Below are positions 2,779 through 61,275 of a DNA stretch of 64,000 nucleotides, piece after piece. The translations under genes were made by a program, and so were the position numbers. The DNA is from a virus (lineage: Duplodnaviria > Heunggongvirae > Uroviricota > Caudoviricetes), in the IMG/VR virus record IMGVR_UViG_3300033156_001279, positions 13,069 to 77,068 of that record. The stretch is one strand, 5' to 3'. Every line of letters starts with the position of its first letter. Position 1 is the stretch's first letter. The notes under the pieces are model-generated. The model searched no databases and was not told the origin of the DNA. It saw nothing but the letters and a program-made list of their open reading frames with translations.

Positions 2779-5157
2779 TTATCCACCAAGTTTAGTCCAT
2801 CTTTGCCTCTGACCAAGAACCTGACTAACTTGTCTGGCTATTTCCCTTATATCATTGTCATTTCTGACAGTATTGTACATGTTAATTGTGACATTTTCTC
2901 CGCCTCTAGTTTCCCCCGCTGGAATTATTCTTTCTCCTCCGTGAGCTATTATTGGAACTGCTTGACCTCTAATCCCTGGAACTATACCACCGAACTGAAA
3001 CGGCGAAAATCCAAGTTGCGACCATAAGAGACTTGAGACTATTTTTTGCCAAGTTCCTCCACCCTTCTTTACACCTCTTGAAGCTTCTTCTAATTCCCTT
3101 CTGCCCATTCCTTCCCAAGGGAGAGGCCCTAATTCAGGTATAGTTCTTATCCATCCCATTCCTCGAATTCTACTGATTCTTGCTATAGTTCTGTTGACTA
3201 AAGAAATCAAGTTATTCAATTTATCCCTGAACCAAGTAACAAATTTGGTTATAGGATCATATAATGCATCAGTAAGTGCTTCTCCTAATACTGTAGTTAA
3301 GCCCATTAGTGCAGCATGAAAAGTCTCAAGAATAAATTTTCCCAAATTCCAAACATTTTTTCCGATTTCACTGAATAACGCAGTCCAAAAAACTGGATCT
3401 AACAAATATTTGATAAAATTATCCCAACACCATTTACCGATTTTCTCGAAGGTAAGGCCCAACTCTCTCCAAAAAAACTCCCAAAATACAGGATCGGTTA
3501 AATCTTTTTGCCAACCTTTTAACCAATCTTTCCATTTCTCCCAAGCATTCTTCATTTTTTCAGTTTGAGCATCAACTGCTTCCCCCAAATTTTCTAAATT
3601 GTCCATTAAATTCTTAAAAATCCCTCCTTCTTCTTTTCCTTGTTTTTCTCTATCTGCTAAATACCTCTCCCAATCTTCATTTTCTCTTCTTAATCTCTTT
3701 TCCAAATCCTTAATTGTCATCTGATTTGCCCACAAACCTTTACTTCTTTCTCTTTCTAAATCTTCCATAATATCCTCAACTGCTCTTTCATGAGCCACTC
3801 TTCTATCTTCATCTATTCCCATTCCATCTTCTTGAGTTTCCGCCAGACCTTTAAATCCACTCTTGATATCAGCAATTCTTTTTTTGATATTATCCATGCT
3901 CTTTGCCATCTTGTCCCAGACTCCAGTATATTTCAAAACCAGATAAGTCCCAGCAGTTAAAACAGCACTAATTCCCAAAGCAGCCAAAGCTAATTTTGAA
4001 AAGGAAAAAGCAGCCACACCTACTATAGCACTCAGTCCTTTAAGAATATTAAAAAAAGAAATTAAGATACCTATTCCGAAAGAAATTTTGCCTATTAAGG
4101 TAGTAATAGCAATGCCCAGAATAGTAATTAATGCCACGGTGGTGTTTATTTTAGGCACTAAATCCAGAACTATTTCAGTTATTTTCCTGAGAGCATTAGC
4201 AACCACCCCCAGAACAGGAGCTAAAGCTTCTCCATAAACATTTTTCAAAAGTTGAATTGAAGTTCTCAATTTGTTCAAAGTAGCTCTTAAAGTTTCTTCT
4301 TCTATTTCATGATAGCCAACTGTATAAGCATATTTTTCCTCAATAGTTTTTAAAATTGCCAATGCTTTCTGCTTTTTTGAGAGTTGGTTTATTGTAAGTC
4401 CAAGCTCTTTTTTCAACCGCCTATCAGTCTCATTCCAGAGCATAAGAGCGGTAGTGTTGCCAGCAGCAATTGAAGTTCCCTTTAAAATTCTTTCTGACAG
4501 AGCCGTCAATGCCTTGGTCATATCGTCCATTTCACTTGTGGTCAGAAAAGCTACATCCAGAAATCTATAAATGAATTTTCTTGCTTCTGGAAAACCTAAA
4601 CCAGTAATATATAAATTCTTAACTGCATTTGCCGCATCTGTTAAAGGCATCAAGCCTTTCAAAGCCAGTTCCTGAGCAAGTTTCGTTGCTTCTTCAGTAT
4701 CTCTTCCATATGCCGCTGCTGCCACTTCAATTGATAAAAATGATTCCTGTAATTCAGCTGCAACATCAATACTTTCTTTTACTACTCTTCTCCATTGTCT
4801 ACTGATCTTACTAAAAATATTTCCTAAATATCTAAAATGCCAAGCAATAAAGGTTAATTGATAACCTATTCCCTTGGCGACTTTTTTCGTACCAGTTTCC
4901 AATCTGTTTATATGATTATATGCATCTTTGAAAGAAGTACTCCAATTTTGAGCAAACCTAGTAGCTACTTTAGCAGTTTTATCTTGAGCTTTGGAAAGAG
5001 AGTTAAAAGTCTTACTAGTCTTCATGAGAGACTTCGAAACTCCTTGACTGGATTTTTTGGTTTGTTTCCCAAGATTCGCAAGATTTTTAATCAGCTTTTC
5101 CTTTTCTTCTTTCCCCTTAACACTTAATTGAATTGTTACTTTAATTTCCTCTGGCAT
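2779..5157 (-). CDS. tail tape measure protein
   Basis: 792 aa, coiled-coil-rich, with a central block of hydrophobic transmembrane-like segments (ILGIAITTLIGKISFGIGILISFF...GVAAFSFSKLALAALGISAVLTAG). Follows the G/G-T chaperone pair, the canonical position. Confidence 0.6.
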   Translation of the reverse strand: MPEEIKVTIQLSVKGKEEKEKLIKNLANLGKQTKKSSQGVSKSLMKTSKTFNSLSKAQDKTAKVATRFAQNWSTSFKDAYNHINRLETGTKKVAKGIGYQLTFIAWHFRYLGNIFSKISRQWRRVVKESIDVAAELQESFLSIEVAAAAYGRDTEEATKLAQELALKGLMPLTDAANAVKNLYITGLGFPEARKFIYRFLDVAFLTTSEMDDMTKALTALSERILKGTSIAAGNTTALMLWNETDRRLKKELGLTINQLSKKQKALAILKTIEEKYAYTVGYHEIEEETLRATLNKLRTSIQLLKNVYGEALAPVLGVVANALRKITEIVLDLVPKINTTVALITILGIAITTLIGKISFGIGILISFFNILKGLSAIVGVAAFSFSKLALAALGISAVLTAGTYLVLKYTGVWDKMAKSMDNIKKRIADIKSGFKGLAETQEDGMGIDEDRRVAHERAVEDIMEDLERERSKGLWANQMTIKDLEKRLRRENEDWERYLADREKQGKEEGGIFKNLMDNLENLGEAVDAQTEKMKNAWEKWKDWLKGWQKDLTDPVFWEFFWRELGLTFEKIGKWCWDNFIKYLLDPVFWTALFSEIGKNVWNLGKFILETFHAALMGLTTVLGEALTDALYDPITKFVTWFRDKLNNLISLVNRTIARISRIRGMGWIRTIPELGPLPWEGMGRRELEEASRGVKKGGGTWQKIVSSLLWSQLGFSPFQFGGIVPGIRGQAVPIIAHGGERIIPAGETRGGENVTINMYNTVRNDNDIREIARQVSQVLGQRQRWTKLGG

Positions 5158-9574: not shown

Positions 9575-12523
9575 TTATTCTGTTGCCTCCCCCAATTTAT
9601 TGCTCACATAATTAAAATTCATAGCAGTTAAGTGAGCAACATCTTCCAATGTATCATTTGCGTTGCCGCCAATTCTTTCAAGTTTTAGGATTAAGAGCAA
9701 ATCGGTATCTGAAATATCAGCAGCGGGAATTGTGAAACTTGTTTTAACCAAACCCTCTGCAGTTGAGCTTGAACCAGCTATTTCTTGTAATGTGTCATCT
9801 GCTGCTGCGTCTATTGCTTCATCTTCGCTTCTTAATAAATAACTCGTTTCCCAGACGCAGTTTGCGGAAGTTGAAGGACTTGCCCATCCTATGTCAACAA
9901 CAACATCTTCTGTTCTGTCAATATCAAGAGGCAGAGGCATCTCTAAAATAACAGTTTCAGTAGTTCCGTCGGAAAACTCCCACGCCCCCGCAATTCCTAA
10001 ATCAACCCAAGAAGCAGGATGAGTTGCTGGAGGTTTAATTGAGCCAATAGCTATCTCAATATTTTTTCTAACTTTCGCCGTTCCGTGAAGGGAGAGCTCG
10101 CCGTCTGCCGCTATTTGAAGATAATTTGTAGTTCCGCCATCGCCAAAATAATGGTTTCCGTCTTTATCTATTACATATCTGAGTATTCCCTGAACTGTTG
10201 TCCAGTTTGGAGAAGTGAGAAACTCGTGCGAGGTTGGGGCATTTCCATATCCTCCTCCCCACATGAAATGGACTTCGTCCATCAGAGCCGCTATGTTTAT
10301 AAGATTTATATCTTCCTCGCCAGCCACAGGATGCGGCACAGAAATCCCGCCAAGCTGAAGTCCAAACCCAGTATCATACATTCCCAGACGCAGTTGAGTA
10401 AGAGCGCCTGTTTGTCCTCCAAGAAGTTGTAAAGGAACATCACCTTGACTTCCAGCAGTGCCAAATGCCGCTGTGCCTGTTGTTTTCAGGTCAGTGTCAC
10501 CAAAATCAGCTAATCCCGGTGTGTTCCAACTTAAAATAATATCTGAACCATCATTGGCATATAACTCCCTTGATGACCAGTTAAGAGACAAAGCATCTGA
10601 ACCGTCTGTTAATAACAGGTTTTCCCAGTCAAGTCTCTGTAAGCCAGAGCTGTCTGCTAATTGTCTATTTCCCCAATCAACACTGAGATAGTCTGAATCA
10701 TCTTTAAGATAAAGACTTCCCCAGTCAACAACATGATAACCCGAATAACCATAAAGGTATTTCCACTGCCAGCTGACATTTATATCCCCTGATGTATCCT
10801 TTAACTGCCTATTGTTTAAATCAACTGAAATCCTATCGCTTGAATCAAGAAGCCCGCTGTCAAACCTTCCTGTGCCTGTGGTTATAAGGTTGCCTGACCC
10901 CATATTCAAAGAAGCATTGTTTGGGAAAGTAATTAAACCACTTTCTACCAGCAAATCTACCTGACCAAAACCAATTGCCAAACTCTCCGCTGTATTGTTT
11001 GTAAAACCTAATCCAAAGCCAAGGGCGTTATCTGCTGTAGCATTGACATCCTGACCCATTGCGATTGCCCCCAATCCCAAAGCTTTTAGAGTGTGTCCCG
11101 ATGAGACATAACCCAGAGCGATTGCCCCTTTATGACCTACTTCACTTCCAGCAACCAAATAAAAATCATCGTGGTCTTCGCTATATCCAGAAGCAAAAGC
11201 ACCCTGCCCTTCCGCAAGAACTTTACCACCAAAAGCAGTTGCGGACTGAGCTGTTGCTTTTGACTGCCAACCCCAAGCGGTTGCATATGGTGCTTCCGCA
11301 GATGAGGAAGCTCCCCAAGCTGCTGCGTAATTCGCTGTTGCTCTCCCTTGTCCCGCAGCAAAAGATCTATTTCCAGAAGCAGTTGAGTCTCCAAGTGCGG
11401 TTGAACTCGCCCCTCCTGCCGTGCTTGTCCCCGTTGCAAAGCTATTTTCTGCTGATGCTATCGCACCCGAACCTACAGCCATTGCATAATCCCCGCTTAC
11501 ATCTGATGTCCCAAATGACACACAGAGAGCTCCAGTTGCTATCGCATCTGGCATCTTGAAAACACTCCCAATTACCGTATTTCCTGTCACTATATCTCCT
11601 GTCACTGTATCTCCTGTTATCGCCCCGTCTTCTAACAAAATCTCATCCTTGTTAATAATAAATCTTGCCCCTACATTTAGGAACTTAAATGTATCACCAA
11701 CCGACAGACCTTCAACACTGTTAAGCTCTATAACATCATTATCTCCTGCGTCTATAGCACTCACAACGGTAAATCTATTTCCTGCTTCAGCTCCTGTCAG
11801 CATTTCTATTTCTCCTCTAAAACTATCAGGAATGACACTTGGTATTACATTTGTAGTCTGAAAGTAATTTTCAAATGGAAGTGCTAAAATCTCATAAGCA
11901 TCGCTATCTGTTAGAGGAGAGCTTATTTCTATTGTTGAGATGTCCCCAAATGTCCCTGTGCCTGTGGTGGTAAAATTGCCTGAACCTAAATCTATACTAT
12001 CGTTAGCAGTGTGGGGGGTTAGAGTGCTATCTGACCTGTCCCAGAGAACTTCTTGTTTTCCATTAAATGAATTCCAATCCGCAGATGATAAATAACCATC
12101 AGTAGTACTATTAGCTTTTTGAATCGAAGCAACATTTGAAGTCAAATCCAAAGGGGCTGTCCAAGAATCTACTCTCTTGGAATAAGCATCATTCCAATTT
12201 GAATCATTTATATTAGAACCAGAGATAATTCCAGAAGCAGATATTGCACCAACAACTTCCAAAGCAACATTCGGGGTTTCTGTTCCAATACCAACTCGAC
12301 CTAATGAGTCTACTATCAGGCTTTTTACAGGAGCGGAAGAATCCGCAGCAATTATCCTATGAAGCAAAGCATGGTCTGGAGCATTAAGTTTATCTGAAGC
12401 TTTGGGTTGAGATATAGCCATAGTAAAGATTAAATAAAAATGGGCATTTAAGAGCCCATTTCTGGATGGAAGAAGAGATTCCCTAAGAGAAACTTCCACC
12501 CAGTGGGTGATTCTTCCACCCAA
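9575..12523 (-). CDS. tail fiber / tailspike-like protein
   Basis: 982 aa, Gly/Thr/Ser-rich with beta-helix-like repeats and repeated SVDWGNRQL / SLNWSSREL units. A ~14-bp tandem DNA repeat at ~11570-11615 encodes TGDTVTGDIVTGNTV. Confidence 0.5.
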   Translation of the reverse strand: MGGRITHWVEVSLRESLLPSRNGLLNAHFYLIFTMAISQPKASDKLNAPDHALLHRIIAADSSAPVKSLIVDSLGRVGIGTETPNVALEVVGAISASGIISGSNINDSNWNDAYSKRVDSWTAPLDLTSNVASIQKANSTTDGYLSSADWNSFNGKQEVLWDRSDSTLTPHTANDSIDLGSGNFTTTGTGTFGDISTIEISSPLTDSDAYEILALPFENYFQTTNVIPSVIPDSFRGEIEMLTGAEAGNRFTVVSAIDAGDNDVIELNSVEGLSVGDTFKFLNVGARFIINKDEILLEDGAITGDTVTGDIVTGNTVIGSVFKMPDAIATGALCVSFGTSDVSGDYAMAVGSGAIASAENSFATGTSTAGGASSTALGDSTASGNRSFAAGQGRATANYAAAWGASSSAEAPYATAWGWQSKATAQSATAFGGKVLAEGQGAFASGYSEDHDDFYLVAGSEVGHKGAIALGYVSSGHTLKALGLGAIAMGQDVNATADNALGFGLGFTNNTAESLAIGFGQVDLLVESGLITFPNNASLNMGSGNLITTGTGRFDSGLLDSSDRISVDLNNRQLKDTSGDINVSWQWKYLYGYSGYHVVDWGSLYLKDDSDYLSVDWGNRQLADSSGLQRLDWENLLLTDGSDALSLNWSSRELYANDGSDIILSWNTPGLADFGDTDLKTTGTAAFGTAGSQGDVPLQLLGGQTGALTQLRLGMYDTGFGLQLGGISVPHPVAGEEDINLINIAALMDEVHFMWGGGYGNAPTSHEFLTSPNWTTVQGILRYVIDKDGNHYFGDGGTTNYLQIAADGELSLHGTAKVRKNIEIAIGSIKPPATHPASWVDLGIAGAWEFSDGTTETVILEMPLPLDIDRTEDVVVDIGWASPSTSANCVWETSYLLRSEDEAIDAAADDTLQEIAGSSSTAEGLVKTSFTIPAADISDTDLLLILKLERIGGNANDTLEDVAHLTAMNFNYVSNKLGEATE

Positions 12524-12575: not shown

Positions 12576-13508
12576 CTAGTGGGTCAACCTTTCTAATTTT
12601 TCTTCAAGCCATTTCACTTTCATAAAATTTCTCAAATCAAGTTTACTTAAATAACAATATTTTAAAAATTCATTAAGAATCGTTTCTCTAGATTCCAAAG
12701 CTCTTCTTTCATGTAATTTGCCTAATTCGTTATCCTTGAAGTAGCCACTCATAGGCACCATAAGTCCAGTATACCAATTCTTATCAAACCATTTTCCATG
12801 CACAACTGCTATCCTTTCTTCTGTTTCACTTAATAATACTCCATTCTTTTTTATTATTCTGGTATTAGGTTTGACCCCAAAGTGATGAATCTGGGAAAAA
12901 AGATAAGGAGGCATGCAAATCATTTTTTCAGTTTTCCTCATCTTAATCCCTAAAATATTTAGATATAAAAAATCATCAAAACTATCTACTCGCTTAGATT
13001 TATAAAGGGCACTAAACCAATCTAAATCTTGTGGACTCAAAAAAATAGGAGCAGTAGTATGAATTAAATAATGAGGATATTCCTCAACTCCCAAATCACA
13101 TTTATAAATCTCTTGATGTTTTTTAGTAAATGAAATGTGCATCCCATTACTTCCAACAATTATCAATCCTTTGGAAGCAGCTAAAAAAAATCTTGCTACA
13201 TCATTAACAAAGAACATATCGGCATCTAACAAGCATACAGCATCATACTCTTTTCCAATTTCATAAGCTATCCGAAATCTTTCAATAGCGGTTCCTTGGA
13301 CTTGATGATTTATCCTTGGTTTAAATATTCGAATATTAAAACTAAAAGTTTCCTGAGCTTTCTTTAAATAATCTTCAGGAATATCAAAAGAAACCAGAAG
13401 GAAATCTTCCTTATGGCTATGAACCTCCAAACTATTCAATAAAGCATTCAAACCAGCTAAATAACTTTTAGAAGCTCCTGTTAAAAATGCAAATTTACTC
13501 TTTTTCAT
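12576..13508 (-). CDS. nucleotide-diphospho-sugar glycosyltransferase-like (DxD)
   Basis: 310 aa with a DAD motif (AVCLLDADMFF). Paralogous to 15831-16757. Confidence 0.35.
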   Translation of the reverse strand: MKKSKFAFLTGASKSYLAGLNALLNSLEVHSHKEDFLLVSFDIPEDYLKKAQETFSFNIRIFKPRINHQVQGTAIERFRIAYEIGKEYDAVCLLDADMFFVNDVARFFLAASKGLIIVGSNGMHISFTKKHQEIYKCDLGVEEYPHYLIHTTAPIFLSPQDLDWFSALYKSKRVDSFDDFLYLNILGIKMRKTEKMICMPPYLFSQIHHFGVKPNTRIIKKNGVLLSETEERIAVVHGKWFDKNWYTGLMVPMSGYFKDNELGKLHERRALESRETILNEFLKYCYLSKLDLRNFMKVKWLEEKLERLTH

Positions 13509-24664: not shown

Positions 24665-27109
24665 TTAGAAAGGAGTTGATTCACCTTCCTTTTTTTTCTC
24701 ATCTTGAACTTCTTTCCAAACTTCTTTTTGAATATCTTCATCCAATTCCATTGCTTCCATTACCTTCTTCCCATCCTCAGGAATTTCAGAAGTTTTTTCT
24801 CTCTCTTCTTTATCTTCATTAATTATACCTTCTTCTGATAAAGAAAAGATTGACTTTTTAGATTTCAGGAATTTTTCTAAAGCTTTACCAACCATTACTT
24901 TCTTTCCATCTTCCAATTCTATTTTGGAATCAGAACCAAGTAATGGAAGTAAAAGTTCTCTTTCTGTAGGAGTTACTTTTCCCATCCTGAGAAGAGCGTT
25001 ATATCTTTTCTCGGCTAAATCAACTTCTTTTTCTTCAGAATTCTCTTCAGTGGAAGTTTCTTCAGTTACAGATTCTTCAGATTCAGATTCCTCTTTTTCT
25101 TCTTCCTCGGTATCTTGACCAACTTTAGAAGACTCAGACTCTTCTTTCTCTGAAGTTTCTTCTGAAGTTTCCTCCGAAGTTTCCTCTGAAGTTTCATCTT
25201 CATTTAATTCCAATTTCTTCTCTATCCTTCTTATTTTCGAACTAATTTCCTCTTGGGTCAAGGGAGGTTCGGAATTCAGAATTGGAATAACCAATTTACC
25301 CTCAAAATTTTCTGAAAGCGGAACAAAGTTTTCCATTCCTTTGATATAAGGTTCGGTAACTAAGGCCGCATGAAATAAAGTCGGACCAATCCTTTCCCCT
25401 GTATCCTTTCTCATATAATCTTCAACAAAACTAGCTGAGATTCCATTAATCAAACCCTTTTTGATTCTTTCCGCAACTGCATCATCTTTCACTTCAATAA
25501 TTGCAGAAAGTTTGGTTCCATCTTTTGAAAGTTCCAAATCATTAACCTGACCTGCATTCTTCATTGGCTCGTCACCAACAGGATGTCCCAAAGGAACAGT
25601 AACATTATCAAGAACTCCTTTTTTAAAATTCTCATACAGCTTTCTTAGTGTCTCTTTTGAAACTTTCAAAATTCCATTTTTACTCGATTCATGAAACCAA
25701 GAACCAACTCTCAATATCTCCTTTTTAAATCTATTCCCTTCGCTAAGTTTGATTAATCCATTGTTATAAACTCGGTAAATCAAATCTTGATTTTCAGCCA
25801 ATTCTTTTTTAGGACTAGGATATGCTGAAGGATACTTTTCTTTTAGACTGATAATTTTCTCACGAATCTTTTTTAACTTGGTAGCAATCTTTTCATCGGC
25901 TTCTTTAATTATAGAATCAAGATCTCCTAAAATTGAATCAAGATTAGTCGTAGCCTTCCGAACTGGATAAGGATAACCATAAGGATAACGGTAAGGATAA
26001 CGGTAGGGATATTGATAAGGATATTGATAGGGATATTTAGAAGGATATTTTGGATATTTAACCGTTCTTTTGGCCTTCTCAGTTTTTCCGCTACAAATTT
26101 TGGCAGCTTCTTTCATTGATTTTCCAGCCTTCATCTCCTTTTTCATACAATCGGTATAAGCTGATTTTTCGAGTTTAGTTATTTTACCAGCTTTCTTAAC
26201 TTTCTTGCTACATATCTTTGCTGCTTCTTTAAATGGAGTTCCTTTCTTAAGCTCTTTTTTCATACAATCGGTGTAAGCGGATTTCTCTACATAAATTTTC
26301 TCAGTTAATTCAGTTTTTTCTTCTTCCTCATCGTCATCCTCTTCCTCATCTTCTTCATCTTCCTCATCCTTGTCTTCCTTATCATCCTCTTCCTTTTCAG
26401 TTTCTTCCTCTTTGTCCTCACCTTCTTCTTTATCCTCGACTTCTTCCGTATCCTCTTCAGACTCATCAGTTCCCTCTTCCTCAGTTTCCTCCTCTTCCTT
26501 AGTCCCTTCGGCCTCCGTTTCTTCAGTTTCTTCTTTATCATCTTCTAAACTTTCCTCTTCAGTTTCACTTAACTCTTCGAAATCTTCTTCTAAATTTTTG
26601 TTCATGGTTTTTTCAGCCATATCAATAGCTTTGGATACATACCATCGAATGGCTTTTGCTTCTGGATTTGCACCTTGCGGAACTAATGATACTTCCTCAA
26701 TATGCAAATCCTTAATTACTCTTAATTTCAAATCAGGAAATAACTCGACCTTTTCTCCATATTTTATCTCTCCTTTGACCGAGAGGCTATTTAGTTCTCC
26801 TGATTTGATTTTATCTATAATTTTTGGTTTATCTACTTCAGTCTTAATCCAAATTTTCCCTTTCCTGAAAACACAATCAAGAACTTTTCCTATTTCTTCT
26901 TTTGTATGGTTCAAACAGAATTTTCCATATTCTTTGAAATCCTTTATGCTTTTCCTTAAAGCTTTATCAGTAATAATATCATTCTGTAAATCAAAATCAT
27001 TCGCAACAGCAAATCCTTCAAGAATAAATCTTTCTTTTTTCTCTTTTTTCTCACTCAAAAAAAGTGGAAATTGAAATTCTATTTTTGGATAATATAATAA
27101 CTTGTTCAT
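24665..27109 (-). CDS. prohead protease (HK97 gp4/S78-like) fused to acidic repeat-rich scaffold region
   Basis: N-terminal FILEGFAVANDFDLQNDIITDKAL...LNHTKEEIGKV...LNSLSVKGEI and a second S78-like segment ...PLGHPVGDEP...GQVNDLELSKDGTKLSAIIEV...IKKGLINGISASF. Between them lie a poly-E/D tract, duplicated KSAYTDCMKKE.K.G..KEAAKICS modules, a YPYQYPYQYPYRYPYRYPYGYPYP repeat, and C-terminal ETSE x4. Confidence 0.5.
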   Translation of the reverse strand: MNKLLYYPKIEFQFPLFLSEKKEKKERFILEGFAVANDFDLQNDIITDKALRKSIKDFKEYGKFCLNHTKEEIGKVLDCVFRKGKIWIKTEVDKPKIIDKIKSGELNSLSVKGEIKYGEKVELFPDLKLRVIKDLHIEEVSLVPQGANPEAKAIRWYVSKAIDMAEKTMNKNLEEDFEELSETEEESLEDDKEETEETEAEGTKEEEETEEEGTDESEEDTEEVEDKEEGEDKEEETEKEEDDKEDKDEEDEEDEEEDDDEEEEKTELTEKIYVEKSAYTDCMKKELKKGTPFKEAAKICSKKVKKAGKITKLEKSAYTDCMKKEMKAGKSMKEAAKICSGKTEKAKRTVKYPKYPSKYPYQYPYQYPYRYPYRYPYGYPYPVRKATTNLDSILGDLDSIIKEADEKIATKLKKIREKIISLKEKYPSAYPSPKKELAENQDLIYRVYNNGLIKLSEGNRFKKEILRVGSWFHESSKNGILKVSKETLRKLYENFKKGVLDNVTVPLGHPVGDEPMKNAGQVNDLELSKDGTKLSAIIEVKDDAVAERIKKGLINGISASFVEDYMRKDTGERIGPTLFHAALVTEPYIKGMENFVPLSENFEGKLVIPILNSEPPLTQEEISSKIRRIEKKLELNEDETSEETSEETSEETSEKEESESSKVGQDTEEEEKEESESEESVTEETSTEENSEEKEVDLAEKRYNALLRMGKVTPTERELLLPLLGSDSKIELEDGKKVMVGKALEKFLKSKKSIFSLSEEGIINEDKEEREKTSEIPEDGKKVMEAMELDEDIQKEVWKEVQDEKKKEGESTPF

Positions 27110-48353: not shown

Positions 48354-49175
48354 ATGGGCAGGAGGCAAAAATTATTTAAACCAATTACAGATGAAAGTTC
48401 TGCCTCTCAATATATGGGTATTAAAGAATTTAAAAATAAAATAATATGTGGAGATTGCTTAAAGATTTTACCAAAGATTCCTGATAATTCTGTTGATTTG
48501 ATAATAACTGATCCGCCTTATAATATAAGCCAAAAAGGTAAAAGTATATCAAGAAAATCAATGAGAGCAACTTCAATGAAGAGAAATATGGATATCAAAT
48601 TGGATTTTGGAGATTGGGATCATATGTCAGAAAAAAATTTTAAGAAATTTACAGAAGAATGGTTTAAAGAGTGTGCAAGAATTCTAAAACCGAAGAGTTG
48701 GATCTATGTATTTTTTAGTAAGGAGAGAATTGGATATTTAGCGATGAATTTAGATTTGAAATATGGTTTGAAGACAAGAACTATATTTACTTGGGTAAAG
48801 AAAAACCCAGCACCTCAATTTAAAAAAGTCAATTGGATTTCCGCAACAGAATTTATTTGGGTAGGAAGTAAAGGAGCAAGTAAATTGAAAAACTATGGTT
48901 ATGTTAAAGATATGTATAATTGGTATATGACTTGTAATAAATCCATTTATGGTAAAACAGAGCATCCAACAGAAAAACCAGTTGAATTGGTAGAACATTT
49001 CATAAGATATAACTCCAATGAAAATGATATAGTTCTTGATCCTTTTCTTGGTTCGGGCACTACAGCAGTTGCATGCAAAAGATTAAGAAGAAATTATTTA
49101 GGAATCGAAAAAAATAAGAAGTATTGTAGAATAGCGAAACAAAGAATTGATGCTCAAACTCTGCCTCTCTTTTAA
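48354..49175 (+). CDS. beta-class DNA methyltransferase (DPPY; N6-adenine or N4-cytosine)
   Basis: Motif IV LIITDPPYN precedes motif I FLGSGTTAVAC, which is the beta-class order. Confidence 0.7.
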   Translation: MGRRQKLFKPITDESSASQYMGIKEFKNKIICGDCLKILPKIPDNSVDLIITDPPYNISQKGKSISRKSMRATSMKRNMDIKLDFGDWDHMSEKNFKKFTEEWFKECARILKPKSWIYVFFSKERIGYLAMNLDLKYGLKTRTIFTWVKKNPAPQFKKVNWISATEFIWVGSKGASKLKNYGYVKDMYNWYMTCNKSIYGKTEHPTEKPVELVEHFIRYNSNENDIVLDPFLGSGTTAVACKRLRRNYLGIEKNKKYCRIAKQRIDAQTLPLF

Positions 49176-49179
49176 AAGA

Positions 49180-50250
49180 ATGGAATTTGTAAAAAAAATA
49201 CCACAAAATAATACAGAAAAAAATATAAGGCGGTTTATAAACTCCAATATTCAAGGAGATACACTGGAAGTATTAAAAACATTTCCAGAAGAATGCATTG
49301 ATTCAATTATTACATCACCACCATATTATTTACTAAGAGACTACCAAATTGAAAAACAAATTGGGTTGGAGAGAACTTATCAAGAATATCTTGCTAAACT
49401 TTGGGTAATTTTTGATGAAATAAAAAGAGTATTGAAGAAAGATGGAACCTGTTTTGTAAATTTGGGTGATACTTTTTCTGGCGGTGGATTTGGATATGGA
49501 AATATTACAGATGAAGAATTCAAAAAAAAATCCCCAAAACAAGGAAGCAATGTTGGGACTTTGTCGGGTAAAAGCAGATTAAAGATAAATAAATTAAGAA
49601 AATTGAAACAATGTCCAGCTAAATCTTTAATGCTCATTCCTCACAGATTCGCAATAGGAATGCTAGATAGAAATTGGCATTTAAGGAATACTTTGATCTG
49701 GATAAAGAAAAATGCAATGCCTGAAAGCGTGCGAGACAGATGGAAAAAAGCTCATGAGTATATTTTTTTCTTTACTAAATCGCCTAAATATCATTTTGAT
49801 TTAGATGCTATAAGAAGACCACACAAAGAAGTTTCAATCAAGCGAGCTAAATATGAGCAAGGTAGAAACGCATTAGGATTAAATCCGAGTAGCATGGGAA
49901 AAAAATATAAAGGCAATAAAAGATATTTTGGAATGCCTGCCAGAATGGTTAAATTAAATCCCAAAGGGGCAGTTCCGCCAGATTATCTCTTGGTTAATAC
50001 CAACTGTTCAGAAAAAGATACTTCGGAACACTATGCCAGCTTTCCACAGGATTTAATTATTCCCTTAATCCAAGCTGGCTGTCCTAAAAGAGGAATCATA
50101 TTAGATCCATTTATAGGAAGTGGAACAACAGGAATAGTCGCTCTCAAATTAGATAGAAATTTTATAGGGATTGATATAAAAGAAGAATATGTAAAAATGG
50201 CTAATAAAAGAATTGAACCATATCTAAGACAAACAAAATTATTTAAGTAA
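49180..50250 (+). CDS. beta-class DNA methyltransferase (SPPY; probably N4-cytosine)
   Basis: IITSPPYY, then C-terminal FIGSGTTGIVAL. The start is placed at the ATG at 49180 (MEFVKK); the ORF track shows a longer overlapping extension. Confidence 0.7.
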   Translation: MEFVKKIPQNNTEKNIRRFINSNIQGDTLEVLKTFPEECIDSIITSPPYYLLRDYQIEKQIGLERTYQEYLAKLWVIFDEIKRVLKKDGTCFVNLGDTFSGGGFGYGNITDEEFKKKSPKQGSNVGTLSGKSRLKINKLRKLKQCPAKSLMLIPHRFAIGMLDRNWHLRNTLIWIKKNAMPESVRDRWKKAHEYIFFFTKSPKYHFDLDAIRRPHKEVSIKRAKYEQGRNALGLNPSSMGKKYKGNKRYFGMPARMVKLNPKGAVPPDYLLVNTNCSEKDTSEHYASFPQDLIIPLIQAGCPKRGIILDPFIGSGTTGIVALKLDRNFIGIDIKEEYVKMANKRIEPYLRQTKLFK

Positions 50251-50256
50251 TTATCT

Positions 50257-50916
50257 ATGAACCCAGGTTCAAATGCGAATAAGAAAAAGATAATCCTTGA
50301 CTTATGTGGGGGAACAGGAGCTTGGAGCAGACCCTACAAAGAAGCAGGATATGATGTGAGGAATATAACCTTACCTGATTATGATGTTAGAACTTATAAG
50401 CCACCTAAAAACGTTTATGGGATATTGGCTGCTCCGCCCTGTGTGCAATTCAGTTTTGCTAAAACTACTGGTAAACCTAGAAACTTGAGAAAAGGAATGG
50501 AAATAGTTATTGCTTGTTTAAAAATAATTTGGGAATGTCAATATGATTTAAAGAGTCCTTATGCAAAAGAAACTACACTAAAGTTTTGGGCATTAGAAAA
50601 CCCTAGTGGATTACTCAAAAGATTTCTTGGAAAGCCAGTCTTTGAATTCTGCCCTTATGATTTTGGTGATGAATATCAAAAACATACTTCTTTGTGGGGT
50701 TATTTCAATATTCCGAAAAAAAAACCAACAAAATTGTCTAAAAGATTAAAAGAATTATCTAAAACTCATAGTCAACCTTTAGCAAAATATATGAAATTTG
50801 ACAGATTAAAAACGAGAGAGATACATCCAGAATATTATGGAAAATTAACACGAGCAGAAAGAAGGGCTATAACTCCATCTGGTTTTGCTGAGGCATTTTT
50901 TCAGGCTAATAAATAA
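50257..50916 (+). CDS. minimal C5-cytosine methyltransferase-like protein (motifs I, IV, VI only)
   Basis: ILDLCGGTGAWS (motif I-like), AAPPCVQFSFAKTTG (PC motif IV), FWALENPSG (ENV-like motif VI). 219 aa with no recognisable target-recognition domain. The ATG is immediately followed by the TGAACCCAGGTTCA palindrome. Confidence 0.45.
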   Translation: MNPGSNANKKKIILDLCGGTGAWSRPYKEAGYDVRNITLPDYDVRTYKPPKNVYGILAAPPCVQFSFAKTTGKPRNLRKGMEIVIACLKIIWECQYDLKSPYAKETTLKFWALENPSGLLKRFLGKPVFEFCPYDFGDEYQKHTSLWGYFNIPKKKPTKLSKRLKELSKTHSQPLAKYMKFDRLKTREIHPEYYGKLTRAERRAITPSGFAEAFFQANK

Positions 50917-55325: not shown

Positions 55326-56258
55326 ATGAAGAAACCAAAGCAAAAATCTAAAAATAATCCTCTACTAAAACTAGAGAATTGGATAAGAAAGACATACAAA
55401 GCAACTCCAAAAGATAAGTTATATCTTAAAGTTGCTAATCTTATAAAAAGTTCGAATTCTTCGGAAAGATATTTCTCGCTTTCTGAACACGAATATATTA
55501 TCGAGAATAGGGATTGGGACTATTATTTTATTGTGCCCGAAAGTGCTTTCAAAGATAAAGAGGAGATGAAAGTTACAAAAATCAAATGTAAAAACCTAAT
55601 CCGAGAAGTGATAGAATTTCCTTCTAAGTTGGTATTTTCTTTAATGGACCAATCATATTCACCATTGGGAACCGATGGTTTTTGGAAGTATAGTGAGAAA
55701 TGGGATGATGAAACTTTTGAATTTAAGCCCAGAATAGCAATTAATAAGAGTGGCAAATTAATCGGAGGTGATGGCAAACCCCTATTTGGATTTCATTTTA
55801 GTTCACCTAGAGGAAGAATTTACAAAAACATACTTTTTACTGATTTAACAAAAGCTAGTCTGAAAAGAGCAAAAATTCTATTACTTAAACAGAATTTAAT
55901 TCCTCTAAAAGAATTCAAGAAACAAAAATTTCTATTAGTAGTTTCACCAGAAATAGAATTTAAGGCAAAAGAAATAGAACATGAACTTATGAAAGAAAAA
56001 CATCCAGACGATCTTTTAGTAACCCCTTATCTGAAAAAACTTAATTGGGCAATAATCTTAGAATCTCCTGCCAAGCCCTTGATTTTTCAACTCAGGTCAG
56101 AACCAGATTTCTGTGTAAATGTTAAAAGACTTTTTGCAGAGGAGTTTGAAAAGAAGACAGTAATAGATTCTAATATGAGATGCAATGCGGGAATTGGAGA
56201 CTGGAAGAAAATAGTTGGTTCATTCAAGAAGGAAGTTGAAAATGAAATATTTAATTAA
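55326..56258 (+). CDS. hypothetical protein (310 aa)
   Basis: ORF. Confidence 0.4.
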   Translation: MKKPKQKSKNNPLLKLENWIRKTYKATPKDKLYLKVANLIKSSNSSERYFSLSEHEYIIENRDWDYYFIVPESAFKDKEEMKVTKIKCKNLIREVIEFPSKLVFSLMDQSYSPLGTDGFWKYSEKWDDETFEFKPRIAINKSGKLIGGDGKPLFGFHFSSPRGRIYKNILFTDLTKASLKRAKILLLKQNLIPLKEFKKQKFLLVVSPEIEFKAKEIEHELMKEKHPDDLLVTPYLKKLNWAIILESPAKPLIFQLRSEPDFCVNVKRLFAEEFEKKTVIDSNMRCNAGIGDWKKIVGSFKKEVENEIFN

Positions 56259-57640: not shown

Positions 57641-57692
57641 TTATGCAGAAATTAAAGGTCGAATAAAACAAAAAAATTAAATAAAAAAAATT

Positions 57693-58520
57693 ATGAAAAT
57701 GTTTAATTATGTGACGGAAAGAGACGAAAATGGAATTCAAAGGTTGAGATGGGGAAAACTAATTGGTCACTTAGTTTTACTAATGGTCTTAATCGTGTTG
57801 TTCTTTGGTGCGTGGGGCACTATCGGTGCTGGCGAAAGAGGAGTATTACTCCAGTTTGGTGCTGTTCAGGATAAGATTTTCGATGAAGGATTTTATCTCA
57901 AGATTCCTTTTGTCCAGTCAGTAAGAAAAGTAGATGTCAAAATCCAAAAAGACGAGGTATCCGCCAGTGCTGCTTCTAAAGACTTACAGATAGTCACTTC
58001 TACAATTGCTTTAAATTACCATATTGATCCAAACTCAGTTAACAGATTATGGCAAGAAGTGGGAGTAAACTATAATGCAAGAATTATAGCACCAGCTATT
58101 CAAGAAGCAATGAAAGCGACAACAGCTCAATACACAGCCGAAGAACTGATTACCCGCAGAGAGGAAGTAAAAGAAGCCACAAAGATGAACTTAACGGAAA
58201 GATTATCGGATAGAGGAATTATGGTGGATGAATTCAATATTATTGACTTTGATTTCTCAAAGGCATTTAATGAAGCAATTGAAGCTAAAATCACCGCCGA
58301 ACAATTGAAATTAAAAGCTGACAGAGATTTAGAAAGAATCAAGATTGAGAAAGAGCAGATGATAACAGCGGCACAGGGCAAAGCAAAAGCTATTAAAATA
58401 GAAGCTGAAGCATTAATGTCAAATCCTAAAGTTGTCGAGCTTCGGTATATTGAAAAATGGGATGGAAAAATGCCCCAATTCTGGGGCGGTGCTACACCCT
58501 TTGTGGGTATTGACAAATAA
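57693..58520 (+). CDS. SPFH/band-7 (prohibitin/HflKC-like) membrane protein
   Basis: TM helix, then GAGERGVLLQFGAVQDKIFDEGFYLKIPFVQSVRKVDVKIQ...NYHIDP, which is the canonical SPFH core. Coiled-coil tail. Confidence 0.6.
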   Translation: MKMFNYVTERDENGIQRLRWGKLIGHLVLLMVLIVLFFGAWGTIGAGERGVLLQFGAVQDKIFDEGFYLKIPFVQSVRKVDVKIQKDEVSASAASKDLQIVTSTIALNYHIDPNSVNRLWQEVGVNYNARIIAPAIQEAMKATTAQYTAEELITRREEVKEATKMNLTERLSDRGIMVDEFNIIDFDFSKAFNEAIEAKITAEQLKLKADRDLERIKIEKEQMITAAQGKAKAIKIEAEALMSNPKVVELRYIEKWDGKMPQFWGGATPFVGIDK

Positions 58521-58521
58521 C

Positions 58522-58704
58522 ATGAGGAAAGCTTTTACTTTAGTCGAATTATTGATTATAATTGCCATAATTGGAATTTTGGCAACTATTATTATAACTA
58601 CTGTAATAGAGGTAAGAAAGAATGAAGGCAATTGCCAAGAAGTCAGAGAACAATGTGTTTCTGAATGTTTTAAACAGGAAGAAAAATGTCTAATTAAGAA
58701 TTAA
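58522..58704 (+). CDS. type IV pilin/pseudopilin-like protein (class III signal peptide)
   Basis: MRKAFTLVELLIIIAIIGILATII matches the prepilin [KR]-[GA]-F-T-L-[IV]-E leader and hydrophobic helix. The start is at the ATG one nt after the SPFH stop. Confidence 0.5.
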   Translation: MRKAFTLVELLIIIAIIGILATIIITTVIEVRKNEGNCQEVREQCVSECFKQEEKCLIKN

Positions 58705-58734
58705 AGGTCGAATAAACCAACTAAAAATAAAATC

Positions 58735-58911
58735 ATGAACGAAGAAGAAAAAAAGGAAACTACTGAAGAAGAAACAGGAGATACAGAAGAGAAAACAGAA
58801 GATACAGAAGAAAAAACAGAAGAAGAAACGACAGAAGAAACAGAGGAAGAATCAACAGAGGGAACAGAAGAATCCGAAGAAACTCCTGAAAGTGTTCCTG
58901 AAGAAGAATAA
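58735..58911 (+). CDS. highly acidic E/T-rich small protein (58 aa)
   Basis: MNEEEKKETTEEETGDTEEKTEDTEEKTEEETTEETEEE... Confidence 0.3.
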   Translation: MNEEEKKETTEEETGDTEEKTEDTEEKTEEETTEETEEESTEGTEESEETPESVPEEE

Positions 58912-58949: not shown

Positions 58950-59321
58950 ATGGCTAACTCAATTATGGGAGATAGAACAACATGGATAGAAAAATGTCCC
59001 AAATGCGGAGCGGACATCGAAGTTTATTCTGCACCTTCTTCATTAATTTGGAGAAAGCATTGTCATATTTGCGGATATGATGATGGATTAGATTACTATG
59101 AAGCCCCTAATTATGTCATTGAAAAACTAACAGAAAAAGAAGCAAGAGAGAAAAAAATTATATTTGATTGTCCCAAATGCAAAACAATTATGACATGGTG
59201 GGAAAAGAAAAAATATGGGATGTGTATTTCCTGTCATCAAGAAAAAACTAATAAATTAAAGAATCATGAATCCAGAAGCAATTCAACAAATAGTAGAAAC
59301 TATCAAGACCCTAAATCTTAA
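58950..59321 (+). CDS. multi-zinc-ribbon protein
   Basis: CPKCGA...CHICGY...CPKCKT...CISCH. Confidence 0.35.
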   Translation: MANSIMGDRTTWIEKCPKCGADIEVYSAPSSLIWRKHCHICGYDDGLDYYEAPNYVIEKLTEKEAREKKIIFDCPKCKTIMTWWEKKKYGMCISCHQEKTNKLKNHESRSNSTNSRNYQDPKS

Positions 59322-59487
59322 TATAGATAGCCAAACAGCTATAGAAATAGTTCAGATTTTAAAGCCTCTTATGTGGCTCTATATCCTAAAAGGTTTTGTC
59401 TTGTCCTTTCTCGGTCTTGTAGCATTTGTCTTTGCTATTTATCTTATTAGCAAAGCAGTTAAAAGTTATTACAAAAATAAAGAGTAA
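59266..59487 (+). CDS. single-pass membrane protein (holin-like candidate)
   Basis: Central hydrophobic helix LYILKGFVLSFLGLVAFVFAIYLI, charged C-terminus. Confidence 0.3.
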   Translation: MNPEAIQQIVETIKTLNLNIDSQTAIEIVQILKPLMWLYILKGFVLSFLGLVAFVFAIYLISKAVKSYYKNKE

Positions 59488-59489
59488 CC

Positions 59490-59657
59490 ATGTGGTGGTT
59501 CTATTTTATCTTGACTTTATGGATAGGTTGGGTGTTGGCTTTGTGCAGGCATAAAATAGAAAGAGATAGTTTTACGTTTGATTGGGTTGATGTAATTATT
59601 CTCTCTACTTTGGGTGCTATGATTGCCTTTTTGATGATTGTAGTTGGAATAGCTTGA
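59490..59657 (+). CDS. two-helix small membrane protein (55 aa; holin-like candidate; not in ORF track)
   Basis: MWWFYFILTLWIGWVLAL...VIILSTLGAMIAFLMIVVGIA. The stop overlaps the P6 -35. Confidence 0.3.
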   Translation: MWWFYFILTLWIGWVLALCRHKIERDSFTFDWVDVIILSTLGAMIAFLMIVVGIA

Positions 59658-59683
59658 CAGGGGCTTAGTAAAAATGCTATAAT
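59655..59683 (+). promoter_or_regulatory. sigma70-type promoter P6: TTGACA-gggg-N-TGC-TATAAT-ggag
   Basis: -35 at 59655-59660, 17-nt spacer, -10 at 59678-59683, ATG at 59696. Confidence 0.45.
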
Positions 59684-59695
59684 GGAGTATGAAAA

Positions 59696-60325
59696 ATGAA
59701 ATTCAAAACTATACTAAAAGATTTTATAAATAGTAATCCTCATCCTCGTATCCTTGGCAGATTTTGGGCTAGTGAAATTTTCGCTATTCAGAAAGGATAT
59801 TTGAAGCCAGAAGATTTCTTTAAAAACGACCCAATCGATTTATCTGGATGCAGAAAAATTAGTTCGGGAATCGCTTATGAGGAATATCTTTCAAAAATAT
59901 TTTTGGAAAGGGGGATTTTGCCAGAGATGAAAGATAGAAATAAGATTACAGAATTAAAGGCGAAATTGGAAGAAACTCTTAAAGAATCCAAACTAGATGA
60001 ATTATTGGAAATCAATTTAATTCCAAAACAAGAAAAGAAAATCTTAAAAATTTCAGATGAAGTCTCACTGGTAGTAAAACCCGATTTTGTCTTTCCAGAT
60101 AAGATTGTTGAAACCAAATATGTATTCAGGTGGGATGGAGAAATTCCGGAGAGATATAAGCCTCAACTTGAAGCGGAATTTCAGGCATTTAAGAAACCTG
60201 TATATCTTGGAAGATTTGAAACTCCTTTTTCTCTTAAATTTTATAAATATGTCCCTTCTTCGAAAAGGTGGGAAAATATAAAAAAGACATTACTGGATTT
60301 TTATGAGAAGATTCAGCAAATTTGA
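59696..60325 (+). CDS. PD-(D/E)xK-like nuclease (putative)
   Basis: ...SLVVKPDFVFPDKIVETKYVF gives the hhhPD...E-x-K pattern. Confidence 0.35.
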   Translation: MKFKTILKDFINSNPHPRILGRFWASEIFAIQKGYLKPEDFFKNDPIDLSGCRKISSGIAYEEYLSKIFLERGILPEMKDRNKITELKAKLEETLKESKLDELLEINLIPKQEKKILKISDEVSLVVKPDFVFPDKIVETKYVFRWDGEIPERYKPQLEAEFQAFKKPVYLGRFETPFSLKFYKYVPSSKRWENIKKTLLDFYEKIQQI

Positions 60326-60752
60326 TTTTTATCTTTTGGGAATTATAACAGGAATACTGCTGGCTTTGGGCTTATATTTGATAATAAATTGGTCTCCTAG
60401 AGAAATTTCCCAGCCAGAAACCAGATTGGAGGAGTGTTTTGTGAAAGCCCCTAATCTCCCTCTAATCCCTCATATTCAGACATTGGCTACTGTAACAGCC
60501 TATAACCCGACCAAAGAACAGTGCGGACAGAACCCGGACATAATGGCAAGTGGTAAGAGGGTTTACGAGGGATCGGTGGCTTGCCCAAGGGAACTGGAGT
60601 TTGGAACTGTGGTTAGAATAGACGGGAAGTGGTATGTTTGCGAGGACAGGACAAGCAAGAAGTATGACGGCCGTTTTGATTTGTTAATGTTTAGCGAGAA
60701 AGAGGCAATAGAATTTGGAAAACAAAAGAAAGAGGTTGAGATTTATAAGTAA
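60303..60752 (+). CDS. membrane-anchored 3D-domain protein (MltA/YuiC-like cell-wall hydrolase; endolysin candidate)
   Basis: N-terminal TM, then VTAYNPTKEQCGQNPDIMASGKRVYEGSVACP...EFGTVVRIDGKWYVCEDRTSKKYDGRFDLLM, which is the 3D-domain signature. Confidence 0.5.
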   Translation: MRRFSKFDFYLLGIITGILLALGLYLIINWSPREISQPETRLEECFVKAPNLPLIPHIQTLATVTAYNPTKEQCGQNPDIMASGKRVYEGSVACPRELEFGTVVRIDGKWYVCEDRTSKKYDGRFDLLMFSEKEAIEFGKQKKEVEIYK

Positions 60753-60794
60753 TTAGTAAAAAAGTTGGGGTTATAAATACTAATCGTAAATAAT

Positions 60795-61275
60795 ATGAGA
60801 AAATATAAACTAACAAAAGAGAAGAAGGAAATATCGGGAACTACACTCTACCGAATAGAAGCGTTAAGAGACTTTGGAGATGTAAAGAAAGGAGATAAAG
60901 GCGGATTTATAGAGAAAGAGGAAAACTTGTCGCACGAGGGAAATTGCTGGGTTTATGATAATGCTTGTGTCTTTGACAATGCTCGGGTCTTTGACGATGC
61001 TCGGGTTTATGATAATGCTTGTATTTTTGATAATGCTTGGGTTCACGGCGTTGCTTGTATTTTTGATAACGCTTGGGTTCACGGCGATGCTTTAGTTTAT
61101 GACGATGCTCTGGGTTTATGATAATACTCAGGTTTATGATAATGCTCGGGTTTGGGGCAACACTTGGGTTTACGGGCAATTAAGACTTTCTGGTGGTGGT
61201 TTCTATTACTTCAAACCAAAATCAGAAAAAAGTAGAAAAGATAGAACTTGGAGAAGATTACGAACTTTTATGTAG
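60795..61275 (+). pseudogene. hexapeptide-repeat (V-[YF]-D-[ND]-A-x) protein gene interrupted by a +1 frameshift inside its 18-bp tandem repeat array
   Basis: About 14 tandem 18-bp units at 60950-61190. The unit gacgatgctcgggtttatgat has become gacgatgctcTgggtttatga at ~61111. This creates a TGA at 61119-61121, and the repeat frame continues in +1 to a TAG at ~61273. Confidence 0.45.

Follow-up and report, generated by a model that had tools for sequence, protein, structure and literature searches.

Why would a tailed phage encode, one nucleotide apart, a prohibitin-like membrane protein of the SPFH (Band 7) family and a very short protein that begins like a type IV pilin? Two such genes lie side by side in a 64,000-nucleotide stretch of viral DNA (positions 13,069 to 77,068 of IMG/VR record IMGVR_UViG_3300033156_001279; hereafter the window). 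A first-pass annotation of this stretch, made from the letters alone, had drawn attention to the pair and proposed that it manipulates the host envelope. We find that the pair is a recurrent, phage-specific module, which joins a membrane-anchored prohibitin-like SPFH protein to a very short class III signal protein. The phage origin of the two genes, already presumed at first pass, is borne out by the window itself, in which profile matches identify the large terminase, portal, head maturation protease, tape measure and minor tail protein of a tailed phage. The same phage is present on a second contig of the Joint Genome Institute (JGI).

The 275-residue SPFH protein was matched by Pfam Band_7 (PF01145) over residues 43-215 (E=8.8e-35; 120.8 bits against a gathering cut-off of 23.6) and by phrog_200 (E=9e-49). 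Among solved structures, prohibitin-2 aligned with residues 43-254 at E=1.2e-31 and prohibitin-1 matched at E=8e-28, followed by HflC (3e-8) and erlin (9e-7); the equivalog cut-offs for HflK (TIGR01933, 52.2 bits against 159.4) and HflC (TIGR01932, 37.8 against 134.4) were missed. The ranking of the structure matches and the HflK/HflC scores under cut-off therefore indicate a prohibitin-type SPFH protein; of the stomatin/prohibitin core described at first pass, the SPFH/prohibitin assignment stands and the stomatin likeness does not. Related phage proteins have been named 'prohibitin family protein' by GenBank annotators. The protein consists of an N-terminal tail beginning MKMFNY, a transmembrane (TM) helix, the SPFH domain, a helical region rich in Ala, Glu and Lys, into which the prohibitin-2 alignment extends, and a C-terminal IEKWDGKMP...PFVGI motif. 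The TM helix, noted from the outset, is the single hydrophobic segment in a Kyte-Doolittle profile (peak 2.57; window limits 18-48, from which the helix core is estimated at about residues 22-44). Five of the 22 residues of the N-tail are Lys or Arg, and because of this the positive-inside rule predicts that the N terminus faces the cytoplasm and the SPFH domain lies outside it. A motif in this tail, M-x-(M/I)-F-N-Y, is common to SPFH proteins of different clades (those of the window and of loci L001, at 4001, L328 and L217, with MFDY in L228) and is absent from the chromosomal homologues of Patescibacteria.

The gene that follows does begin one nucleotide after the SPFH stop codon, as first described, and encodes 60 residues, not 61. 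Its product opens with the leader MRKA, followed by FTLVELLIIIAIIGILATIII..., with cleavage predicted before Phe5 and with Glu9 at position +5 of the processed protein. It passed the cut-offs of N_methyl (PF07963; 26.8 bits against 21.2) and of TIGR02532 IV_pilin_GFxxxE (22.0 against 16.3), and it matched six PHROGs, including phrog_3433, annotated 'pilin'. The Band_7 and N_methyl profiles, on which the first-pass annotation had staked its two assignments, thus both score above their curated cut-offs; the prepilin leader it reported holds at Phe+1 and Glu+5 and departs from the canonical form at position -1, where Ala replaces Gly. Full-length pilin and pseudopilin equivalog models matched only the first 30 or so residues, far under cut-off. 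The hydrophobic alpha-1 segment extends to about residue 28 and leads into a 32-residue helical tail with cysteines at positions 38, 45, 49 and 56, and AlphaFold2, run on the single sequence, predicted one continuous helix over residues 7-58 (mean predicted local distance difference test score 79.8). Judged by its sequence and this predicted model, the protein is a 'mini-pilin' and not a pilin, a class III signal and an alpha-1 helix that lack the globular pilin domain. The Cys-rich tail and the SPFH domain are predicted to share the outer side of the membrane, which would place the two ectodomains together. The JGI gene call is an 80-residue version starting at ATG 58462 and overlapping the SPFH 3' end; we favor the 60-residue start because the homologues all begin M-K/R-K-G-F-T-L. 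A homology search of the 60-residue protein against 5.8 billion proteins returned only itself, and a motif scan of the window revealed no second pilin-like open reading frame (ORF).

The arrangement of the two genes indicates that they are expressed together. A single C (58521) separates the SPFH stop codon (TAA, 58518-58520) from the mini-pilin ATG at 58522, and the mini-pilin gene has neither a Shine-Dalgarno sequence nor its own copy of AAAGGTCR, a motif that occurs 23 times in the window against 5.4 expected. Its copies follow the local coding strand and are found mostly 20-35 nucleotides 5' of start codons, with an A-rich spacer behind them; the motif could serve as a promoter specific to the phage or as a signal for RNA processing or translation. 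An exact 17-mer containing this core, ATTAAAGGTCGAATAAA, precedes the SPFH gene and recurs at the end of the mini-pilin gene (Table 1), where it forms the downstream boundary. Because these copies flank the pair and the mini-pilin has none of its own, we regard the two genes as one motif-delimited unit, and they are probably translationally coupled. The possibility that the 17-nucleotide direct repeat is the insertion scar of a mobile cassette was dropped, since its core is a genome-wide upstream motif. Directly 3' of the mini-pilin is a 58-residue ORF (58735-58911) made up almost entirely of Glu and Thr (MNEEEKKETTEEETGDTEE...), which has its own AAAGGTCG motif and gave no family match.

The same pair is found in other phages. 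In the phage of L001, of which L060 is a metagenome copy, the SPFH protein is 67% identical to that of the window and the flanking genes are otherwise unrelated; here the gene order is SPFH, an 81-residue TM protein and an 83-residue mini-pilin, whose Cys-rich tail is homologous to that of the window protein (BLASTP E=2e-11, three aligned Cys). PADLOC defence-system models gave no matches for the SPFH protein or either mini-pilin. The pair also occurs in 38 GenBank records of T4-like phages, 36 from Aeromonas and two from Stenotrophomonas. In Aeromonas phage 44RR2.8t, ORF098c (a TM-anchored SPFH protein of 307 residues) is followed after a 53-nucleotide gap by ORF097c, a 72-residue protein with two Cys that opens MKG/FTLIE; the two are listed side by side as SPFH and N_methyl proteins, with no comment on their pairing, in Table 3 of Nolan et al. 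(2006, PMC1524935). When IMG/VR contigs were retrieved by the pilin sequence alone, 10 of 26, the query contig among them, had an SPFH gene directly upstream. A sample blind to SPFH was assembled by searching viral contigs with a DNA pattern for K-G-F-T-L-I-E-L, yielding 120 stretches (1.09 Mb) with 87 unique pilin-like ORFs. In this sample a same-strand SPFH gene lay within 1.5 kb of 11 of the 42 pilin-like ORFs shorter than 120 residues and of none of the 45 longer ones (Fisher p=1.5e-4), and 12 of its 13 SPFH genes adjoin a pilin-like ORF. The SPFH partners belong to at least four clades (window/L001/L293/L338; the L217-L240 group; L221/L233; the Aeromonas group) with 15-28% identity between them, and the flanking genes vary from locus to locus. 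The junctions are often tight, with a 4-nucleotide overlap in L240 and gaps of 5 to about 80 nucleotides in L233, L328, L239, L230, L319, L338 and L293. This recurrence over at least four divergent clades with differing flanks, the enrichment and the tight junctions effectively exclude chance adjacency, and the initial view that the pairing is meaningful is upheld by its statistically supported presence in many unrelated phages.

All mini-pilins of the related loci passed the N_methyl threshold, the SPFH-linked ones at 34-38 bits. The G/A-F-T-L-I/V-E motif is conserved across them, and the tails are hypervariable and from 13 to about 95 residues long; from this combination we argue that the function lies in prepilin-type processing and alpha-1 interactions. 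A C-x5-8-C loop immediately after the hydrophobic helix recurs in the SPFH-linked mini-pilins of L239, L230, L240, L328 and L338. Every other SPFH-linked mini-pilin examined has Gly at -1, and Ala is found there in other viral pilin-like ORFs (L025-L029, L219 and L222). The window instance is unusual among module members in its Ala at -1, its four-Cys helical tail and its SPFH protein shared with Patescibacteria. A MAFFT alignment suggested common ancestry of the L001 and Aeromonas mini-pilin tails, but BLASTP did not support it (E=0.45) and we make no such claim.

Some of these loci contain further genes. A helical protein of about 60-67 residues (MFGNTIKKRV..AEKEK.F...) is a third recurrent member, encoded between the two genes or just after them (Table 1). 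In L229 a secreted 135-residue HExxH protein (3597-4004) stands between the SPFH gene and the mini-pilin, and in Aeromonas phages Ah1 (L198 3825-4706) and Aeh1 an SprT-family metallopeptidase is encoded beside or near the SPFH gene; SPFH and metallopeptidase genes may be recurrently associated in phages. The Aeromonas T4-like phages carry a DUF1190 lipoprotein and a YgiC-like gene, which we take to resemble the E. coli ygiB-ygiC pair and which could be a captured host envelope cassette. The lipoprotein (E=7e-22) is encoded directly after the SPFH/mini-pilin pair in phage 25 (L200 3713-4321) and 44RR2.8t (L192 2385-2993), and the second gene, glutathionylspermidine-synthase-like, lies further downstream (L200 4532-5758; L192 692-1882), with a GenBank note citing similarity to YgiC.

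The nearest relatives of the window SPFH protein, at 70-79% identity over the core, are chromosomal genes in metagenome-assembled genomes (MAGs) of Patescibacteria, the candidate phyla radiation (CPR), with Doudna-, Nealson-, Kuenen- and Saccharibacteria among others. These genes occupy variable housekeeping neighborhoods (TypA, Obg, ABC transporter or RarA genes) and have no conserved partner gene beside them. Neighbor joining places the window protein next to the CPR clade, in a group with L001/L060 and two short contigs. This identity and placement therefore point to gene exchange with Patescibacteria, with which the SPFH protein appears to have been recently shared, and we infer that the window phage probably infects these ultra-small bacteria. 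Leaving L060 aside, a pilin-like neighbor was found at none of about 160 cellular or metagenomic SPFH loci, including about 45 Patescibacteria copies at 70-79% identity, which rules out that the pairing was inherited from the host. When translation table 11 is applied to a MAG labeled Candidatus Peribacteria (L130), its SPFH homologue (3837-4529) is interrupted by several in-frame stops at sites that are Gly in homologues, a pattern that suggests stop-codon recoding there, of the code 25 kind.

Taken separately, SPFH genes, pilin mimics and truncated pilins are all known from phages, and the 44RR2.8t pair has been in print, uninterpreted, since 2006. No description of an SPFH/prohibitin-pilin linkage in phages was found in the full-text literature searched, whose coverage leaves out most subscription journals, and the literature examined assigns no tested function to phage SPFH proteins. 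Prophage FimU (P-FimU) enters the pilus and blocks pilus-tip phages, and virulent Pseudomonas phages carry truncated, N-terminal-only PilA genes of about 60 residues, proposed either to prevent pilus assembly or to become part of the pilus (Sztanko et al., Cell Rep 2026, PMC12952977). As in the module, the phage here encodes a protein with a class III signal that imitates a subunit of the type IV pilus. P-FimU, however, is a complete minor pilin resembling that of its host, and no SPFH partner is described for it, whereas the window mini-pilin has no detectable pilin similarity beyond the N-terminal motif and has Ala at -1; truncated PilA is the nearer analogue. Seen in this way, the module would be a phage pilin mimic with an obligate-looking SPFH partner. 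Tip and Aqs1, phage inhibitors of type IV pilus assembly, are soluble cytoplasmic proteins that bind the PilB ATPase and act on the motor. The module as proposed here has in common with them that the phage shuts down the pilus and excludes other phages, but neither of them mimics a pilin in the membrane or is paired with an SPFH protein. In cellular SPFH-NfeD operons, a stomatin or flotillin gene is similarly coupled to the gene of a small membrane partner, NfeD; the partner in the window differs in having a class III signal and in lacking the NfeD OB-fold or ClpP-like domain, and profile searches gave no NfeD match for the mini-pilin, its neighbors or the partner proteins at related loci. Prohibitins and HflK/C form cages around AAA+ proteases. 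The window SPFH protein resembles the components of such cages (PDB 8rrh, 7vhp and others) in its N-terminal anchor, SPFH domain, possible coiled-coil region, predicted extracytoplasmic orientation and best matches, and differs in being phage-borne, in being encoded by a single gene and not as a K/C or PHB1/2 pair, and in its phage-specific N-tail MKMFNY. ORF098c/ORF097c of 44RR2.8t and the homologues in phages 31, 25, Aes012, phiAS4 and others show the same order, a TM-anchored SPFH protein and then an N_methyl protein of 72-75 residues with a two-Cys tail; the Aeromonas SPFH proteins are about 17-20% identical to that of the window, and the mini-pilin tails have no significant similarity.

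What, then, does the module do? We tentatively prefer the reading, at somewhat less than even confidence, that an SPFH platform and, co-translated with it, an alpha-1-only pilin decoy interfere with host type IV filaments, for example in superinfection exclusion. Soon after infection, both products would be at work on the outer surface of the cytoplasmic membrane of the host. The mini-pilin would be inserted with its N terminus inside and trimmed by the host prepilin peptidase, and its alpha-1 helix, with Phe+1 and Glu+5, would bring it into the host pilin pool or into a type IV filament machine (type IV pilus, competence pseudopilus or type II secretion system). There it may serve as a head-less decoy by which the filament is blocked, capped or re-surfaced, to the benefit of the phage, which would thereby mask the receptor or exclude superinfecting phages; where the host belongs to the Patescibacteria, it could also bring attachment and DNA uptake by way of pili under control. 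The SPFH protein would oligomerize into a ring or cage, which could concentrate or stabilize the mini-pilin or shield it from FtsH-type quality control, or alternatively hold captured host pilins in a closed membrane patch. We arrive at the decoy because the membrane-buried Glu+5 and the cleavage motif are kept in proteins that contain almost nothing else, and because prophage FimU proteins and the truncated PilA genes of virulent phages offer a precedent (PMC12952977). The location of the module also speaks for interference: the pair is surrounded by replication and recombination genes, not structural or lysis genes, and lies on the strand opposite to the structural genes. The 'early' timing of the operon given in the first-pass annotation is only suggested by this position, its superinfection exclusion, pilus or competence blockade and scaffold roles are likewise inferred, and the link it drew to prepilin peptidases and SPFH-regulated proteases found no support. 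Possible, though we consider it doubtful, is a wider generalization, that the module represents a widespread, hitherto unrecognized class of phage membrane device in which a virus-encoded SPFH cage encloses alpha-1-only decoys and captured host pilins in a membrane compartment and so switches off type IV filaments from inside the membrane. It would then be one case of a general rule, extending from archaeal haloviruses to T4-like phages, by which viral SPFH proteins operate with a micro-membrane protein translated alongside them.

Several observations weigh against interference with type IV filaments. The residue at -1 of the window mini-pilin is Ala in place of the canonical Gly, and Ala at this position is cleaved poorly by the prepilin peptidase of P. 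aeruginosa. Neither a type IV pilus nor a type II secretion component was found among the profile-searched ORFs, a part of those in the window, and no pilus-binding tail protein was identified there. In the SPFH-blind sample, about 70% of the short viral pilin-like ORFs stand without an SPFH gene as neighbor. Conversely, most phage SPFH genes have no adjacent mini-pilin, as seen in Bruynoghevirus Ab22, T5-like atrejo, Klebsiella PTP25, Pantoea Phynn, Aeromonas Ah1 and 4_4572, Vibrio 1.187.O, the pilus-dependent Stenotrophomonas phage DLP3, Burkholderia CSP3, Acinetobacter SH-Ab 15599, a Manatee Spring siphovirus, a faecal phage contig and L202. At several mini-pilin-free viral SPFH genes the next gene encodes a tiny single-pass membrane peptide of 32-45 residues, after a gap of 1-55 nucleotides (Table 1). 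Since SPFH genes occur without a mini-pilin, some with non-pilin peptides, SPFH function does not require pili, and mini-pilins may be one partner type under a broader rule of viral SPFH proteins with micro-membrane partners.

The non-pilin micro-partners also support the main rival explanation, possible if rather unlikely in our estimate, that the mini-pilin is simply a small bitopic partner or client of the SPFH protein, in which, in some hosts, the class III signal serves for insertion and trimming only. As HflK/C or prohibitins do around FtsH-type proteases, or stomatin with NfeD, the SPFH cage would then tune FtsH-type quality control of host membrane proteins, membrane integrity or the timing of lysis and lysogeny, and leave pili unaffected. 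Single-TM peptides of 30-45 residues lie equally tightly behind the SPFH genes of HF2, PTP25, Phynn and 4_4572, L001 has an additional 81-residue TM protein between its two genes, the nearest solved structures are prohibitins and HflK/C, and phage SPFH proteins have been discussed in terms of HflK/C and lysogeny in a paper on Bruynoghevirus (PMC8540360). A plain anchor, however, needs no G-F-T-L-I-E motif with a buried Glu, yet this motif is kept over SPFH clades that are 15-28% identical; moreover, the enrichment is specific to short class III proteins, and none of the partners has an NfeD domain.

A lysis pair, in which the mini-pilin is a holin, antiholin or spanin-like protein and the SPFH protein sets the timing, is suggested by the small TM proteins (59266-59487 and 59490-59657) and the TM-anchored 149-residue protein (60303-60752) within 2 kb downstream, by paired cysteines reminiscent of disulfide-linked spanins, and by the short distance, a few genes, between the SPFH gene and the lysis-inhibition rI genes in T4-like phages of Aeromonas and Klebsiella. 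We think it improbable: profile searches recognized no endolysin beside the pair, at most loci the module is surrounded by replication-type genes, a class III signal is foreign to known holins and spanins, and the strong promoter at 59654-59683 separates the pair from the neighbor of the downstream TM genes. Equally slight is the likelihood we give to auxiliary genes that support the host, an SPFH copy and an extra pilin subunit that boost or remodel host pili and membrane, for example in episymbiont attachment or in DNA and nucleotide import. The 70-79% identity to chromosomal Patescibacteria genes would fit such a role, and Patescibacteria phages have been reported with surface-modification auxiliary genes (PMC12911398); against it, the module is also present in virulent Aeromonas T4-like phages, it includes SPFH clades without a close cellular relative among the loci sampled, and the mini-pilins are missing the globular domain on which normal surface functions of pili depend. 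That the two are unrelated accessory membrane genes and merely neighbors is highly improbable. Phage accessory regions are mosaics of small membrane genes, and Aeromonas phage Aeh1 has both kinds of gene in non-adjacent positions (PMC1524935), but chance does not account for recurrence in at least four divergent SPFH clades with different flanks, for the Fisher test and the 12 of 13 adjacent SPFH genes in the SPFH-blind sample, or for junctions that overlap or measure 1-5 nucleotides.

The features of the window and of the compared loci are collected in Table 1. A megablast of 14 kb against GenBank phages gave no match, so that the phage has no close relative there, and the window contains no tRNAs. 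Three consecutive DNA methyltransferase genes occupy 48354-50916 (phrog_67 twice, phrog_757). A Mu gpT-like homologue of major head proteins (55326-56258; Pfam E=2e-11, phrog_371) is encoded in the plus-strand block, together with the methylase, accessory and replication genes and well away from the portal, tail and protease genes of the minus-strand block. Both halves of an 814-residue ORF (24665-27109) match head-maturation-protease PHROGs. At 10001-12000 the GC fraction rises to 0.44 from about 0.34, inside a 982-residue minus-strand ORF (9575-12523) that has no PHROG match; the spike may mark a mosaic or recently acquired tail-fibre segment. Downstream of the pair, the two small TM proteins lie just upstream of the gene at 60303, whose 149-residue product matches phrog_6631 (function unknown) and is followed by a YdcK-like beta-solenoid repeat protein (60795-61121; NF040481, E=3e-23); the genes from 59266 to 61121 could form a cluster for lysis or the envelope. 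Three near-perfect sigma-70-type promoters (TTGACA, 17-18 nucleotides, TG-n-TATAAT), with ends 'gctataatgg' or 'gatataatgg', may mark separate transcription units read by host RNA polymerase. A second repeated upstream motif, AACCCTAAATAAACCT, occurs with variants in intergenic DNA between 62240 and 63780, 5' of at least four consecutive small genes (62263, 62506, 62756 and 63412).

Table 1. Positions of features in the window and, where a locus number is given, in other SPFH loci.
Feature	Position	Strand	Remarks
Prohibitin-like SPFH/Band 7 membrane protein	57693..58520	+	275 aa
Predicted single TM anchor of SPFH protein	57756..57824	+	residues about 22-44
Mini-pilin	58522..58704	+	60 aa, MRKAFTLVELLIIIAIIGILATIIITTVIEVRKNEGNCQEVREQCVSECFKQEEKCLIKN
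Cys-rich mini-pilin tail	58633..58689	+	C-x6-C-x3-C-x6-C
ATTAAAGGTCGAATAAA, exact 17-mer with AAAGGTCR core	57651..57667	+	intergenic, 25 nt upstream of SPFH start
ATTAAAGGTCGAATAAA, second exact copy	58700..58716	+	overlaps mini-pilin stop codon, 18 nt upstream of next gene (58735)
AAAGGTCR, example sites	37339, 37589, 38000, 44510, 44864, 57241, 57654, 58703	+	
AAAGGTCR, example sites	6854, 9568, 24654, 47133	-	
Sigma-70-type promoters	59654-59683		5' of gene 59696; also 5' of genes 48354 and 53047
Tape measure, minor tail, portal and head-maturation-protease-like genes	about 2-35 kb	-	profile matches
Large terminase	50.9-52.4 kb		
Small genes, replication initiator/DnaD-like gene, three DNA methyltransferases, RusA/PDDEXK-like nuclease	36-64 kb block	+	
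Third-member helical protein	L230 4158-4352; L231 1850-2053; L314 6567-6743; L217 1106-1312		not in window
Single-pass peptide 3' of SPFH, Halorubrum phage HF2	L367 2794-2928		44 aa, 1-nt gap
Single-pass peptide 3' of SPFH, Klebsiella PTP25			32 aa
Single-pass peptide 3' of SPFH, Pantoea Phynn			36 aa
Single-pass peptide 3' of SPFH, Aeromonas 4_4572			45 aa
Single-pass peptides 3' of SPFH, further coordinates	L195 3363-3461; L196 3374-3484; L197 3271-3408		

The interest of these results lies in the conserved module rather than in the single locus of the window. SPFH genes are common in phages, with more than 900 GenBank phage records matching one of two SPFH queries, and head-less pilin genes in virulent phages have been noticed only recently. 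Their genetic coupling across very distant phages gives both kinds of gene a testable context, one that spans a probable Patescibacteria phage and the cultivable, tractable Aeromonas T4-like phages. If the pair does block or re-surface type IV filaments, it would represent a new route to superinfection exclusion and a new handle on pili, competence and type II secretion, and in Patescibacteria it would touch the organelle that underlies their episymbiotic lifestyle. If the SPFH cage instead manages a small membrane client, the module would provide a minimal natural system for what SPFH cages do.

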